Source: Syntrophales bacterium (GTDB lineage Bacteria; Desulfobacterota; Syntrophia; Syntrophales; UBA4778). From it: a DNA stretch of 64,000 nucleotides. Position numbers and translations under genes: made by a program. The stretch spans positions 719-64,718 of the forward strand of contig JBHGBI010000009.1 of NCBI GenBank assembly GCA_041946925.1, given 5' to 3'. The notes below the pieces were generated by a model. The model was not told the DNA's origin. It made no database searches and saw nothing but the letters and a program-made list of their open reading frames with translations. Below are positions 34,392 to 41,501 of this stretch, piece after piece (the stretch's first letter is position 1; every line of letters begins with the position of its first letter).

Positions 34392-34958
34392 ATGAAAGAC
34401 TCTAATCCGCAGTTGATGTACCGCAGCAGGATCTTCGAAGTCTATGAAGAAGATGTTTCCATGCCGGACGGACGGGTGGTGCGGCAAAGCCGCATAGAAC
34501 ACAAGCCGACCATTGCGGTAGTACCCGTGGATCCCGCGGGCAGGATAATCCTTATCCGGCAGTACCGCTCGGCGGTCAGGCAATACCTGCTCGAGATACC
34601 CGCGGGCACTCTGGACAAGGCGGACGAATCCATCGAACAATGTGTCCAGCGGGAACTGGCGGAAGAAACCGGTTTCAAATCCGGGCGGCTCGTCAAACTC
34701 TACGAAGGATATCTTGTACCCGGGTACTGTGATGAATATATGCACTTCTATCTGGCTCTCGATCTCTTCGAGGAAAAGCTCCCCTCGGATGAGGACGAAT
34801 TCATTGAGACGGTTTTCACGACAGTCGAAGAAGCGCTCTCCATGATCAGGGACGGATCCATCAAGGACAGTAAAACCGCGCTTGGAATCCTTCTGGCATC
34901 AGGGTACCTGAACGGAAAGCAGGCAATCCGACAGACGGAGTCGTCATGGCGGAAGTGA
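34392..34958 (+). CDS. NUDIX hydrolase (ADP-ribose pyrophosphatase-like)
   Basis: Nudix box GTLDKADESIEQCVQRELAEETG; IKDSKT. Confidence 0.93.
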   Translation: MKDSNPQLMYRSRIFEVYEEDVSMPDGRVVRQSRIEHKPTIAVVPVDPAGRIILIRQYRSAVRQYLLEIPAGTLDKADESIEQCVQRELAEETGFKSGRLVKLYEGYLVPGYCDEYMHFYLALDLFEEKLPSDEDEFIETVFTTVEEALSMIRDGSIKDSKTALGILLASGYLNGKQAIRQTESSWRK

Positions 34959-35647
34959 AGCAATTCCGCTACGCCGCGGACAATCTAGGGTATCTTATTT
35001 ACAGCGCCAGCCAGGCTGTCGTCGTCGATGGAGGTGCTTTCCGGGATATTCTTTCTTTTATCCGGTCCCGCAACCTTGATCTCCTGTGGATTTCCAACAC
35101 GCACTCCCATGCAGACCATATGGTCGGCAACCGCGCCCTCCTGGAAAACTCCAATGCCCGCTATCTGAGCTACTTCGACCTGCTTGATATGCGGCTCCTG
35201 GAGCTCAACGGAAGCAGCATCACCGTTTACCGTACCCCGGGTCACACAGTCGATTCCGTCTGCTTTCGCACAGGCCGTTTCCTCCTGACCGGCGACACCC
35301 TTTTCAACGGTACTGTAGGGAATTGTTTTTCAGGCGATCTGAAGATCTTTTTCCATTCCGTCAAAAGGATCATGACCCTGCCCGGGGATACCGTGATTTA
35401 CGCGGGGCACGATTATGTCCGCGATTCCATGAAATTCGCCCGCAGGCTCGATCCGGACAACCCGGATATCGATTCGTTCATGAAGAAATATGAACCCGGC
35501 CACGTGCTTTCGACCCTGGATGATGAGTTCAGGATCAATCCCTATCTGCGCTTCAATGAGGAAAGAATCGTATCCTTGTTGAAAAAAAGGGGACTGCCCG
35601 TGGACACGGAATGGGACCGCTGGAAATCCCTGATGAGTATCGAGTAA
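34946..35647 (+). CDS. gloB: Hydroxyacylglutathione hydrolase-like metallo-beta-lactamase fold protein
   Basis: THSHADH, TPGHT, TGDTLF, YAGHDY, STLDDEFRINPYLR. Confidence 0.85.
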   Translation: MAEVKQFRYAADNLGYLIYSASQAVVVDGGAFRDILSFIRSRNLDLLWISNTHSHADHMVGNRALLENSNARYLSYFDLLDMRLLELNGSSITVYRTPGHTVDSVCFRTGRFLLTGDTLFNGTVGNCFSGDLKIFFHSVKRIMTLPGDTVIYAGHDYVRDSMKFARRLDPDNPDIDSFMKKYEPGHVLSTLDDEFRINPYLRFNEERIVSLLKKRGLPVDTEWDRWKSLMSIE

Positions 35648-35706: not shown

Positions 35707-36153
35707 TCAACAACCGTCGATGGACATGGGGACTCTCGAGGATATTTCCTTGAACCCGAGCTTACGGTAGAGATCATCCGAATCCTTGACGGCTATCAGG
35801 CCGATCCACGATATCCCGTCTTCCTCGAGGCGTTTCATGATGAGTTTTACGATCCGGGTTGCGATCCCCTTCCTTCTGAAGGATTCCTTCACTATGACGT
35901 CCTGAATGTAGGCGTCACTGGCCCTGTCGCTGATCGCCCTGCCCATCCCGACGATCTCTTCCTCTTTTATGGCGACGACAAAGCAGTGGCTTCCCGAAAC
36001 GATCCGGCGGGCCCTGCCAGGAATACTATCGTCTTCATCCGTCCACCACCCCGCAGCCCGGTAAAGCGTCTCTATCTGCCCGATCTGTCCGGGATCCGGC
36101 CTCACCACAAAAAGGTATTTCACTTTTTCTTCGTGCTCTCTATGCGAGGCCAT
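35707..36153 (-). CDS. GNAT family N-acetyltransferase
   Basis: YIQDVIVKESFRRKGIA, LYRKLGF. Confidence 0.9.
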   Translation of the reverse strand: MASHREHEEKVKYLFVVRPDPGQIGQIETLYRAAGWWTDEDDSIPGRARRIVSGSHCFVVAIKEEEIVGMGRAISDRASDAYIQDVIVKESFRRKGIATRIVKLIMKRLEEDGISWIGLIAVKDSDDLYRKLGFKEISSRVPMSIDGC

Positions 36154-36191: not shown

Positions 36192-36220
36192 ATCATAGGA
36201 TGGAGATACAGGCATGTCAA
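36192..36220 (-). promoter_or_regulatory. Sigma70-type promoter for the GNAT gene
   Basis: TTGACA-N17-TATGAT on the minus strand. Confidence 0.75.
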
Positions 36221-36298: not shown

Positions 36299-38002
36299 TC
36301 AAAATTTTGCTATGGCGACGGCTGCCAGCGCGACTGATACGATCAATTTGATCAGTACGCCTGGGAATAACCCGCTGAACATATCTGCGGCGTGTTTTTC
36401 GAAAAGATTCGGTTCATTGCCGGGTTGCCTGACACCAGCCTCCTTTGATCCCGCATGCCACACCAGAAATCCCGTTGCCGCGCCGGCAAGAACCGTCCCG
36501 GCCAGAAAGCCGATGGTAATTCCGGGGCCGGCAAGAAAACCTGCTGCAAACAGGATCAGCAAAATCATGATGAAAGGCAGGTATATCCTTTTCCATGAGG
36601 GGCCGGTTTTAAGAAATGACGAGAACATCAGGTAAGCAGCGGCCATACCTAAGATAAGCCCCGCCATACCCGGAAGAATGTCCGGTGATCCCCGGAAGCC
36701 TTCTTTAAGAGTCGCAGCATAAGCAGCGCATCCCGCCGAAGCGGCAAAGATCGAGGAGGTCAGGACATATCCCCGCCCCGGATCCGGCGACCTGCGACTG
36801 TGTATCATCCCGCGCAGATAGGATTCTCCCTGTCCACCACCACTGCCGGGTTTTCTGAAAAAACGACCTGCAATGTTGAGAGCGGCCGACACAGATAAAG
36901 TTCCGCTGATCCCCAGAGCCGCGAGAGCTACTCCGTAGAGACCTGCAAATATGTGAGACATCCAGATCGCGGTCGCCGTGAAAACAGCCGGCAGTATTAC
37001 TCCCTCCGCTCGTGAAAACAGATACTCAGCCTTACCCACTCTCTCGGGGCTGCTGTAATAATCAATGAGTAATCCCGTCAGAAGAGGAATCACAGCACCC
37101 AGCGAGACTGCCCAGAAGGGTCCCGACCTGTCCAGCATCCCGGCTTCGGCAAGATCATCTGAAGAAAATACCGCCATGTTCTTCCTGACCAGCAGAAATG
37201 CGACTGCAATGAATATCCCGGCTGAGATCCACCTGCTCCAATGCGCCTTTTCTTTTGAGAACAGGATAACGGCGATCCCAGCCAGCGAGGCGAGATAACC
37301 CGCCACAACAAAAAGAACAGGCAACTCCTGCCATTCCGCATAACCGCCTCCGGTAACCGATCCTGCGATCATCGCCGAGGTGAATGACAGAATGAATGAA
37401 ACCAGAAGATCCGTATTTGCTAGGGACACTGCGGTCGCCAGAAGAGCGGGGGTGCTTTTCCCTCGCATTCTCTCTGAACGTCCGGCCGCGATAACACAGA
37501 AAAACAGAACCAGGGCGCCCCCCACGGAGAAGCTTCCCATAGCAGCGGAATTATCCACCGCGGAAAACTGGAAGAGAAGACCGGCCACTGTCAGGACCAA
37601 ACCGGGCGGAAGGAGGCCCGCCGCGGAGCCGGCATAGCGGGCCAGGCCCCATGCCCCGCCGCGGTAATCTCCGCCGGGTAAAACGGAAATGCCTCCGATC
37701 AGCAGGCAGGCAATGCGGAAGGCAAGGTATACGGAAGCGATCGCCGCGGCAACGCCGATTACGAATACAAAGGAGGGGATAAGGGAATCCAGGACAAAAA
37801 AAGGGGTAATGAAAGCGACGGCGGCCGCGAAGAAAAAAGGCAGCTCCCTTTTAGCCGCCCGGACGATTTCTTCCCGGCCCGCTTTCGACTCAGCCGGACC
37901 CCGGCCGATATATGAAAGATGACGAAGAGGAATACTCAGGATAGACGATGCCGTGATTCCGGCGAATCCAATGATGCTCGCATATATGCCCAGGAATTCC
38001 AT
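36299..38002 (-). CDS. Membrane pyrophosphatase (HppA)-like polytopic protein without catalytic motifs
   Basis: TM segments match HppA (FWAV..LIDYYSS, FAGLYGVALAALG, GRGYVLTSS, GVLIKL); acidic catalytic loops absent; TGATG overlap with pth. Confidence 0.75.
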   Translation of the reverse strand: MEFLGIYASIIGFAGITASSILSIPLRHLSYIGRGPAESKAGREEIVRAAKRELPFFFAAAVAFITPFFVLDSLIPSFVFVIGVAAAIASVYLAFRIACLLIGGISVLPGGDYRGGAWGLARYAGSAAGLLPPGLVLTVAGLLFQFSAVDNSAAMGSFSVGGALVLFFCVIAAGRSERMRGKSTPALLATAVSLANTDLLVSFILSFTSAMIAGSVTGGGYAEWQELPVLFVVAGYLASLAGIAVILFSKEKAHWSRWISAGIFIAVAFLLVRKNMAVFSSDDLAEAGMLDRSGPFWAVSLGAVIPLLTGLLIDYYSSPERVGKAEYLFSRAEGVILPAVFTATAIWMSHIFAGLYGVALAALGISGTLSVSAALNIAGRFFRKPGSGGGQGESYLRGMIHSRRSPDPGRGYVLTSSIFAASAGCAAYAATLKEGFRGSPDILPGMAGLILGMAAAYLMFSSFLKTGPSWKRIYLPFIMILLILFAAGFLAGPGITIGFLAGTVLAGAATGFLVWHAGSKEAGVRQPGNEPNLFEKHAADMFSGLFPGVLIKLIVSVALAAVAIAKF

Positions 38003-38598
38003 CAATCCCGATCCGTTTTCCCTTCATGACCGCTGTTTCTCACGTTGAATTTATTCATCGCCTTTTGTATCTGCGAGGAAACGAGCATCCCGACCGCTTC
38101 ACACGCCCGTTCGACCTGCCGCGCGACCAGCGGAATATCTTCCTTCGAAAAACTCTCCAGTACATAGGACTCGACCATTTCTTTCATCAGCGGCTTCCCG
38201 ATGCCCATCCTTACTCGATGAAACTCCCGGGAACCGAGATGCTCCATTATCGAGAGCAGCCCTTTGTGTCCGCCCGCGCCACCTCCGGTCTTGACCCGCA
38301 CTACCCACGGTTCCAGATCGAGATCATCATGCACAATGATCAGATCATGTATGTCCCCTTTATAATAGCTCAGAATGTCCCGTGCAGAGATCCCGCTCAG
38401 ATTCATGAATGTCAGGGGCTTGACAAGCAGGGCGGCAATCCCCTCGATGAATCCCTCTCCGACAAGGGCGTTGAATTTCTTCCGGTTGACGGGAATCCCG
38501 TGAATCCCGGACAGTTCGTCAACGACCATAAAGCCCAGATTATGTCTGGTCAATCTGTATACGGCTCCCGGATTGCCCAGCCCGATGACGATTTTCAT
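38002..38598 (-). CDS. pth: Peptidyl-tRNA hydrolase
   Basis: GLGNPG..TRHNLGF, KPLTFMNLSG, HDDLDL, GGHKG. Confidence 0.97.
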   Translation of the reverse strand: MKIVIGLGNPGAVYRLTRHNLGFMVVDELSGIHGIPVNRKKFNALVGEGFIEGIAALLVKPLTFMNLSGISARDILSYYKGDIHDLIIVHDDLDLEPWVVRVKTGGGAGGHKGLLSIMEHLGSREFHRVRMGIGKPLMKEMVESYVLESFSKEDIPLVARQVERACEAVGMLVSSQIQKAMNKFNVRNSGHEGKTDRD

Positions 38599-39583: not shown

Positions 39584-40525
39584 TCATATAAACAGCGAGC
39601 TCACCGAATCATTGTAATATATCCTTCTGACCGCCTCGCTTAAATGCCCGGCGACCGAAAGGACCTTGATGCGATCGCATGATTTCGCCTTTTCATGCAG
39701 GGGGATCGTATCGGTCACAATCACTTCCTTGATGTTGGATGCATTGATCCTGTCAATGGCAGGACCGGAAAGGATCGGATGCGTACAGCAGACCGAAATC
39801 TCCGTCGCCCCCGCTTCGGCGAGCGCCTCCGCCCCCTGGACGACCGTACCCGCCGTATCGATCATGTCATCGAGAATGATCACCCTCTTGTCTTTGACGT
39901 TTCCGATGATATTCATGACCTGGGATTCATTGGGACCTTCGCGCCTCTTGTCTATGATTGCAAGGGTCGCACCAAGCCTTTTCCCAAAGGCCCTTGCCCT
40001 TTCCACGCCTCCTGTATCCGGAGAGACAATGACCGTATTTTCCGAATATATCTTCCTCACGTACTCCAGCAATACGGGTGTCGCGAAGAGATTGTCGACC
40101 GGAATGTTGAAAAAACCCTGGATTTGGCCAGCATGGAGGTCGATCGAGAGGACGCGGCTCGCTCCCGCCGCCGTGATAAGGTCGGCCACCAATTTCGCGG
40201 TAATGGGCGCCCTGGGCGCGACTTTTCTATCCTGCCTCGCATAGCCGTAGTAAGGTATGACAGCCGTAATGCGGTCTGCGGACGCCCGCTTCATGGCGTC
40301 CATCATGATCAGCAGTTCCATGCAGTTATTATTCACGGGGGGACACGTGGATTGGATGATGAATACGTCCATGCCGCGCACATTTTCATTGATCTCGACC
40401 CTGGTCTCGCCATCGCTGAAAGTGGCTACATTGGCCTTGCCGAGTGCAATACCGAGTATGCCGCAGATCTTCGCCGCCAGTTCTGTATTCGAGTTTCCTG
40501 AAAAAATCCTCATTCTTTCGAGCAT
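39584..40525 (-). CDS. prs: Ribose-phosphate pyrophosphokinase
   Basis: [47 protein letters not shown]. Confidence 0.98.
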
Positions 40526-40661: not shown

Positions 40662-41501
40662 TTATTCAAGTGAATGTGCGGTAAATACGGATAAGTCTTC
40701 CCGGCGGCTTAATGCCCTGTGTGCCTTTTCCGCGTCTTGCCGCCCGGCGAATACTCCGAAGACAGTCGGCCCGCTGCCCGACATCAGGGAGCCGAGGGCG
40801 CCATTCTCGATCAAAAGCCCCTTCAATTCCTTCAATGCCGGGTGAAGACTAAGGGTGACTCTTTCGAGATCATTCCAGAGTCTCCCGGCAATATCCTCAA
40901 GTGAGAAAAACTTTGGGATGTTAAACTGGATCATCTCTTTTGTCAATCCTAAATTAAGATTTTCATAGACCATTTTTGTGGAGATCTCGAATCCGGGATT
41001 GACCAGGACAAACCACATCGGCGGAATCTTTCCCGCGGGTTCCAGCCGGTCGCCTATTCCGAAAGCCCAGGCTGCGTTGCCGAAAATAAAAAACGGGACA
41101 TCCGCCCCGATAGTCGCGCCGATTTCGATCAAATCATGGGGACTTAGATTAAAGCGAAACAGCTCGTTCAGGCTGACCAGGGTGGTGGCCGCATTCGAGC
41201 TCCCCCCTCCAAGCCCGGCCGCGACCGGTATCCTCTTCTTGATCACAATCTCGATCCCGGGGGATTCCGACACACGGGAGAACAACGCCCGGGCCGCCCG
41301 GTAAACTATATTCCTCTCGTCTTCCGGAAGCGAACTATCCGGGCATGTCACCTTGATCCCGGTGCCTGTGGGAATGAACAAAATCTCGTCATAAAGACTT
41401 ATTTTCTGCATCAGGGTCGCCAGGTCATGGTAACCGTCTTGCCTCTTGCCCAGCACATGAAGCAGGAGATTGACCTTGGCCGGCGACTTCCTCACTATCA
41501 T
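40662..41501 (-). CDS. ispE: 4-diphosphocytidyl-2-C-methyl-D-erythritol kinase
   Basis: PAKVNLLL, KRIPVAAGLGGGSSNAA, GADVPFF, MSGSGPTVF. Confidence 0.97.
   Translation of the reverse strand: MIVRKSPAKVNLLLHVLGKRQDGYHDLATLMQKISLYDEILFIPTGTGIKVTCPDSSLPEDERNIVYRAARALFSRVSESPGIEIVIKKRIPVAAGLGGGSSNAATTLVSLNELFRFNLSPHDLIEIGATIGADVPFFIFGNAAWAFGIGDRLEPAGKIPPMWFVLVNPGFEISTKMVYENLNLGLTKEMIQFNIPKFFSLEDIAGRLWNDLERVTLSLHPALKELKGLLIENGALGSLMSGSGPTVFGVFAGRQDAEKAHRALSRREDLSVFTAHSLE

Follow-up and report, generated by a model that had tools for sequence, protein, structure and literature searches.

The DNA analyzed here, referred to as the window, is a stretch of 64,000 nucleotides (nt) from a Syntrophales bacterium (assembly GCA_041946925.1, contig JBHGBI010000009.1, positions 719–64,718, forward strand), and the gene under study is a loop-less remnant of a membrane pyrophosphatase (mPPase) lying on its minus strand at 36299..38002. 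The gene encodes 567 amino acids (aa) from an ATG, an assignment based on the list of open reading frames (ORFs), translation, HHalign, AlphaFold and Foldseek; a TTG at 38005 provides an alternative start (36299..38005, 568 aa), and the stop codon occupies 36299–36301. The minus-strand gene order is DUF1844-ispE-prs-rplY(ctc)-pth-remnant: ispE (GHMP kinase, 40662..41501) and prs (ribose-phosphate pyrophosphokinase, 39584..40525) are followed by rplY/ctc (ribosomal protein L25, 38821..39480), which lies upstream of pth in the same gene string, and by pth itself (peptidyl-tRNA hydrolase, 38002..38598), for which the Pfam label Pept_tRNA_hydro was taken from syntenic loci; all four are on the minus strand. 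An earlier note on this stretch had reported an open ORF of 567 aa coupled to pth through a TGATG junction; the ORF list and translation bear out the former, now placed on the minus strand, and the minus-strand letters (...GAT CGG GAT TGA TGG AAT TC...) bear out the latter, the pth stop TGA and the remnant ATG overlapping by one base. All metagenome members of the remnant family that were examined are likewise linked to pth, with start overlaps of 4–13 nt; conservation of this overlap in every lineage is indirect evidence that the protein is made. Family members, which include clusters of 9–11 near-identical sequences, are labelled "hypothetical protein [Syntrophales bacterium]" at NCBI.

Taken as a single sequence, the remnant scores 18.3 bits (E 1e-3) against Pfam PF03030, under the cut-off of 29.7, and its best NCBIfam model, NF001961, yields 40.7 bits (E 9e-11) with a cut-off of 926, neither of these curated mPPase family thresholds being reached. 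A phmmer search of the remnant alone against the PDB gave no relevant match, BLASTP against the intact mPPase of its own genome gave no match, a search for related loci with the remnant protein found none, and a word-indexed search recovered one relative only with the single sequence and was dominated by intact mPPases with a profile. Building of the family profile required an exhaustive HMMER search over 1.84 billion representatives, which returned 23 matches at E <= 0.001, the majority of them relatives of 480–560 aa or shorter fragments, along with a few intact mPPases or their fragments. The resulting family profile (alignment A1, 13 remnant sequences) matches the Thermotoga maritima enzyme TmPPase (4AV3) at E 5e-20 and the Vigna H+-PPase at about 3e-13, and HHalign of the remnant family against 12 intact mPPases aligned 526 columns end to end (probability 100, E 6.4e-53). 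A Pfam search of the kind envisaged by the earlier note stays under its cut-off for the single sequence; the family profile and HHalign give much stronger evidence of homology.

The AlphaFold model computed on A1 has 16 long helices, with a predicted local distance difference test (pLDDT) score of 79.7 and a predicted template modelling (pTM) score of 0.87. Every one of its 35 Foldseek matches at E <= 0.001 is an mPPase, among them TmPPase 4AV3_A (template modelling score, TM-score, 0.79; E 2.8e-16); a second family member of 493 aa gave a weaker model (pTM 0.70), for which Foldseek again returned mPPases only. The loop charges also fit the positive-inside topology of mPPases (28 Lys and Arg residues in predicted cytoplasmic vs. 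5 in periplasmic loops). Overall, HHalign, AlphaFold and Foldseek all recover the mPPase fold of 16 transmembrane helices in two concentric rings, so that both the profile and the structural match to H_PPase on which the earlier reading depended were obtained, and the gene is predicted to encode a 16-helix inner-membrane protein with the same topology as the mPPase membrane core.

Alignment by MAFFT of 15 remnant family members with 13 intact mPPases, which is the basis of all column counts given here, brings all 16 helices of the remnants and the intact enzymes into register. Each of the transmembrane matches listed in the earlier note was reproduced: ANTDLLVSF of the remnant stands against GADLYESY, GPFWAV...LIDYYSS against GPFWAV...ITEYYTA, FAGLYGVALAALG against CAGLYGIAIAGVG, GRGYVLTSS against GKGFAIGSA, GFLAG against GFLAG, and GVLIKL against NILIKL. 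With TmPPase (K+-dependent and Na+-translocating; PDB 4AV3, 5LZQ, 8B21) the remnant has in common the helix order, the 16-helix topology, the residues D6.50, S6.54 and K16.50, and the helix motifs GPFWA, AGLYG and GFLAG. Unlike TmPPase, it is some 130–170 residues shorter, has none of the four cytoplasmic catalytic loops and none of the Asp, Lys and Asn residues that bind pyrophosphate (PPi) and Mg, and carries replacements at E6.53 and 16.46 and an Arg for K12.50.

What is left of the four loops can be located. The loop between helices 5 and 6 is reduced to residues 172–187 (37442..37489, minus strand, as are all features within the gene), standing for GGGIYTKAADVGSDLVGKVE...DNVGDNVGD, and loop 11-12 to residues 378–411 (36770..36871, low model confidence), standing for DxYGPIADNAGGIAE...LDAVGNTTAAIGKG; in the intact enzymes the latter loop reads DSYGPIADNAGGIAE...LDAVGNTTAAIGKG, which is deleted or replaced in the remnant. 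Loop 13-14 (residues 462–472, 36587..36619) is about 40 residues shorter than in intact orthologs, loop 15-16 (residues 518–540, 36383..36451) stands for GGAWDNAKK...GDTVGDPFKD, and loop 9-10 is also partly missing in the remnants. A scan with seven catalytic-motif patterns, which intact relatives do carry, gave no match in the window ORF or in five full-length orthologs, in line with the absence of cytosolic catalytic motifs claimed earlier; within the hydrolytic center, DxGxDLxGKxE, DNxGDNxGD, DxYGPxxDNAGG, GNTTxAxGKG, GGxWDNAKK and GDTxGDPxKD are all deleted or replaced.

The same picture is obtained column by column. R5.50, D6.43, E6.53, the helix-11 Asp/Asn residues, the Asn of GNTT, the helix-15 Asp/Lys residues, D16.31, D16.35, K16.38, D16.39 and N16.46 are invariant in the intact enzymes (13/13) and survive in at most 5 of the 15 remnants. 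In the coupling funnel of the window protein, R5.50 is Val, K12.50 is Arg (R410, 36773–36775), and D6.43, K16.38 and D16.39 are deleted; across the family, the K12.50 position holds Arg in eight and Lys in two remnants (10/15). The ion gate, which comprises D6.50, the semi-conserved E6.53/6.57, S6.54, D/N16.46 and K16.50 (PMC5150537), is retained by half. The gate Asp D6.50 is kept as D198 (37409..37411; 12 Asp, two Glu and one Asn in the 15 remnants, thus acidic in 14), S6.54 as S202 (37397–37399; kept in 10/15), and the gate Lys K16.50 as K552 within GVLIKL (36347..36349; eight Lys and four Arg, 12/15). The gate Glu E6.53, present in all 13 intact enzymes, is replaced by V201 (37400–37402) and is found in none of the 15 remnants, which carry Val, Thr or Ala instead; position 16.46 is Gly in the window protein and Ala, Gly or Met across the family. 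The earlier statement that the gate appears retained thus stands for D198 and K552 and fails for E6.53 and N16.46, and K12.50 has become Arg. Read against the published mPPase anatomy of hydrolytic center, coupling funnel and ion gate (PMC5150537), the alignment indicates that the first two are gone and that the third is half dismantled.

The origin of the remnant can be traced to a particular mPPase type. We use type A for the intact K+-independent-type enzyme (NCBIfam NF001950) and type B for the pth-linked, K+-dependent-type Syntrophales enzyme (NF001961), which, when intact, scores 1051 bits to its model, over the cut-off. In other Syntrophales families the slot after ctc-pth holds an intact mPPase of 683–697 aa with all motifs, and in the family of the window the same slot holds the remnant (494–568 aa). 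In a maximum-likelihood tree, 17 remnants form one clade with a support of 100 in the Shimodaira–Hasegawa approximate likelihood ratio test (SH-aLRT), with the Syntrophales type B enzymes as its sister clade (99); the remnant stem has a length of 0.84 and its terminal branches 0.5–2.0, compared with 0.03–0.12 for intact enzymes. By position and by phylogeny, the remnant thus descends directly from the pth-linked Syntrophales type B mPPase. An intact type B enzyme (e.g., locus L010, 683 aa) shares with it the ctc-pth slot, the closest clade of the tree and the best NCBIfam model, as well as clade features such as a Trp before helix 7, an amphipathic segment in loop 8-9 and a C-terminal APxIxxLYxxIH tail. 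As the remnants constitute one clade with long branches, the gutting occurred a single time, and evolution became 10–20-fold faster afterwards. Descent from the genome's own 815-aa type A paralog was considered and rejected, as the family profile misses type A at E <= 0.001 and the tree groups the remnant with type B.

The gene evolves under constraint. The ratio of nonsynonymous to synonymous substitution rates (dN/dS; Nei-Gojobori method with bootstrap 95% confidence intervals, CIs) is 0.31 (0.24–0.41) and 0.37 (0.28–0.49) in two independent within-genus remnant pairs, compared with 0.11–0.17 for pth, 0.10 for ctc and 0.06–0.11 for intact type B pairs. Purifying selection thus acts on the remnant at a strength 3–6 times lower than on its intact orthologs, and it does so without regional preference: values of 0.26–0.47 across helices, loops and the conserved core single out no functional patch. 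At least 12 lineages have open frames of about 500 codons, the complete members carrying neither stops nor frameshifts, and five of the six genera of the family keep the remnant, which is truncated in one of the five and lost in the sixth. A pseudogene reading was rejected on these grounds (open frames, dN/dS below 0.5); with both CIs excluding 1, neither the frameshifts nor the neutral evolution named in the earlier note as fatal to its proposal were found.

Overall, descent from an active family (sister position in the tree and the same genomic slot), loss of the catalytic residues (column counts) and purifying selection on frames that are intact across lineages are all observed, and it is close to certain that the remnant is an mPPase-derived pseudo-enzyme. 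In this respect the earlier proposal of a pseudo-enzyme that lost its loops selectively, and not by random decay, is upheld by the end-to-end homology, the fold, the shared deletions of single origin, the open frames and the dN/dS values. Although it is an mPPase core in structure, the remnant works like no characterized protein; because it fails the curated thresholds and every catalytic criterion, it is best classified among mPPase-derived pseudo-enzymes, outside the mPPases proper.

The earlier note had also suggested a search for an active paralog, and one is present. The only intact mPPase of the genome is a type A enzyme of 815 aa on another contig (G000 C77:1471-3915; locus L001 1345..3792, plus strand), with scores of 588 bits (PF03030) and 1332 bits (NF001950) and the Lys at 12.46 of the K+-independent type; its catalytic motifs are recognizable but divergent, five of seven loose patterns matching. 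A gene for a rhomboid-like membrane protein precedes it. This type A enzyme is 89–90% identical to the copies of another family (G016, G037) and 84–85% identical to those of its own family, a pattern that hints at transfer or uneven rates. Type A is found in all remnant-carrying genomes except one (G007, an 87%-complete assembly).

Across 61 related genomes, type A and type B almost exclude each other: where an intact type B is linked to pth, as in 12 genomes, type A is missing from 10, and some 30 type A genomes have no type B. Among Syntrophales, the pth locus (L010-L020, L026-L031) forms a hot spot of mPPase genes. In G012, G013 and G041 the gene after pth is type A, in G048 the two types stand in tandem, and the locus in G016 has no mPPase, with pth-ychF instead. 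The tandem of G048 resembles the arrangement of SYN_02772 and SYN_02770, the two mPPase genes of Syntrophus aciditrophicus (PMC4992975). The simplest history would have two mPPases at one locus, redundancy and differential loss, with type B stripped and not deleted in the remnant family. The intact type B gene of the G048 tandem (L018, G048 C1:2068566-2070419) has a branch of 0.12 vs. 0.04 in its sisters, i.e., about threefold longer, which may represent an early stage of relaxed constraint.

The alignment of the remnant family has no conserved stretch of 7–10 columns. It has 11 invariant positions, of which seven are Gly and four are D291, R292, P295 and Y356, the last within AGLYG. D291, R292 and P295 lie in LDRSGPFWA (residues 290–298, 37109..37135), which spans periplasmic loop 8-9 and the first part of helix 9. 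The D291-R292 pair arose or became fixed after the gutting, because it is missing from intact orthologs in the MAFFT alignment. The block that is best conserved in common with intact mPPases is FAGLYGVALAALG (residues 352–364, 36911..36949), located at the turn between helices 10 and 11 and the start of helix 11. By the helix boundaries of one AlphaFold model, which were used for all region analyses, the conserved blocks of helices 6-7, 9-11 and 15-16 lie in the halves near the periplasm, and the cytoplasmic ends vary freely; similarity to intact enzymes is highest in helices 9, 10, 11, 7 and 15, and among the helices of the mPPase dimer interface, 10 and 15 belong to the better conserved ones and 13 is average.

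These observations can be assembled into a mechanism. In the ancestor of one uncultured Syntrophales family, loops 5-6, 11-12, 13-14 and 15-16 were deleted along with the cytoplasmic extensions of the helices, the parts from which the hydrolytic center and the coupling funnel are built, and the gate residues E6.53 and N16.46 were swapped for small or hydrophobic ones. Judging by its sequence, the product should neither bind nor hydrolyze PPi nor pump ions, and PPi energetics would presumably be carried by type A. Selection would then keep a folded and probably still homodimeric membrane bundle, whose conserved elements are mainly Gly residues for helix packing, a buried D6.50-K/R16.50(-R12.50) charge cluster, and the periplasm-proximal motifs W224...P, LDRxGPFWA, AGLYG and GPxxLxGFxAG. 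As a whole, this account of a gutted type B enzyme that is maintained by selection as a non-catalytic scaffold is, in our view, a probable explanation of the data, held with considerable reserve. Its more specific form, a structural or partner-binding membrane scaffold with its working surface on the periplasmic side, is tentative and falls somewhat short of an even chance. That the mPPase core has a second, PPi-independent job (e.g., lipid organization, or binding of a periplasm-facing partner via LDRxGPFWA and W...P) is a rather doubtful proposition; if true, the remnant family would be a natural "minimal construct" keeping only that job.

Several observations weigh against a selected scaffold, and some of them also speak for a functionless relic in slow decay, made redundant by type A and exposed only to selection against toxic misfolding in a highly expressed operon. 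A dN/dS of 0.3–0.4 is weak constraint for a bacterial gene, raised 3–6 fold over intact sisters that evolve 10–20 times more slowly, and identity between genera has fallen to 23–30% while that of Pth is 52–59%. Genus g3 has no trace of the remnant after pth, and most other families of the order have lost the gene as well; the remnant of G001 is 362 aa long and ends after helix 11 or 12 (L022 1447..2535), and in one metagenome lineage it is split into 486 and 66 aa (L035 2077..3745). These last two cases suggest ongoing loss of C-terminal helices in some lineages. The longer branch of the type B gene beside its tandem type A (L018) points the same way. Furthermore, we found no gene specifically and universally co-inherited with the remnant, the neighboring acetyltransferase gene being absent from two genera, and the periplasmic half may be conserved for the packing of the ancestral fold and not for a new functional surface. 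Nevertheless, a relic explains poorly why frames of this length stay free of stops and frameshifts in complete members at such low identity, why the CIs exclude neutrality in two independent pairs, why five of six genera keep a gene whose deletion is feasible and has happened elsewhere, and why an invariant, non-ancestral D291-R292 arose after the gutting. Slow decay may apply to some lineages, and for the family as a whole we regard it as improbable.

The earlier note had offered two further roles, neither of which fared well. One is that of a regulatory or structural heterodimer partner tuning the half-of-the-sites catalysis or the stability of type A. As mPPases are obligate homodimers with inter-subunit coupling via helices 10, 13 and 15 (PMC5150537), the good conservation of helices 10 and 15 and the occurrence of type A in all remnant genomes that are at least 88% complete would suit such a partner. 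However, the sole active mPPase is the distant type A, which is about 30% identical to type B and whose sequence around helices 10-11 (VFAFGLVAFGFLGMGP) is unlike the WIxYxFAGLYG block common to the remnant and type B. Type A also does not need the remnant, as it occurs alone in some 30 related genomes and in g3, a genus of the remnant family. Obligatory pairing of the remnant with type A is thus unlikely, and for the same reasons (distance, and the fact that type A mostly occurs alone) a scaffold is favored over it; a tuning partner in the broader sense strikes us as quite improbable. The other role is a passive, PPi-independent ion path or an ion sensor built from the gate/exit half with D6.50, S6.54 and K16.50. 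Retention of a buried D6.50 and K/R16.50 at about 25% overall identity speaks for this role, as does the fact that the periplasm-proximal half, the gate and exit channel of mPPases, is the best conserved part. Two of the four ion-coordinating gate residues have been replaced (E6.53 by Val, Thr or Ala; D/N16.46 by Ala, Gly or Met), and R5.50 and the funnel charges have given way to small or hydrophobic residues, leaving the interior less polar. In intact mPPases, moreover, K16.50 forms a salt bridge with the gate acids in open, substrate-free states, and substrate binding breaks it (PMC5150537); the remnant has no substrate site by which the gate could be opened. Because the interior has lost polar and charged residues along with half of the ion ligands, a scaffold would fit better than an ion channel, and the odds of ion conduction or sensing seem to us very low.

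The mPPase family is regarded as catalytic throughout, its members being primary ion pumps, and literature searches for a non-catalytic mPPase, or for a link between mPPase and Syntrophus, returned nothing relevant. The remnant family may be viewed as a natural deletion experiment, in which the 16-helix core seems capable of persisting after loss of all four cytoplasmic loops, and it should be useful for studies of folding, dimerization and the gate/exit half of mPPases, which serve as targets for drugs in protist parasites and for engineering in plants. It also offers a clean evolutionary case, in which two mPPase types occur at one locus, most lineages keep one of them, and a single family retained the skeleton of the redundant type under selection; the retained skeleton points to a scaffold function beyond PPi energetics. 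The organisms concerned exist at the thermodynamic limit and are known to depend on PPi cycling (PMC4992975). Counting of "H_PPase-like" matches overstates PPi-pumping capacity. Intact type B has all motifs, dN/dS of 0.06–0.11 and branches of 0.03–0.12, whereas the remnant has no motifs, 0.31–0.37 and 0.5–2.

Downstream of the remnant lies a gene for a GNAT acetyltransferase (35707..36153, minus strand), which is syntenic in several lineages but not in all. The gap between the remnant stop and this gene is 145 nt and contains a sigma-70-like promoter match, TTGACA-17-TATGAT (36192..36220, minus strand; 11 of 12 positions, a consensus match only). Because this gap and the promoter match precede the GNAT gene, the layout suggests that the ctc-pth unit ends with the remnant as its last cistron. 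A functional module of the remnant with the GNAT gene was rejected, as the two are not adjacent in two genera and a separate promoter-like site precedes the GNAT gene. Together with genes for a NUDIX hydrolase and a glyoxalase-II-like hydrolase, which overlap by 13 nt, the GNAT gene constitutes a block beside the remnant (window 34392–35647, plus strand, and 35707–36153, minus strand); this block recurs in several family members and is missing in genera g4 and g6.

A further metagenomic protein, P0020 (L036 12..1442, plus strand; JGI 3300037878), deserves mention. It is 476 aa long and encoded by high-GC DNA, and it starts 12 nt from a contig end and may be incomplete. It reaches Pfam H_PPase and keeps GADLFGS, FWAV and GLY..AALG, with LAVLAPILDAAAAT in place of DAYGPISDNAGG, and has neither GGAWDNAKK nor GDTVGDP; it looks like a degenerate mPPase of independent origin.

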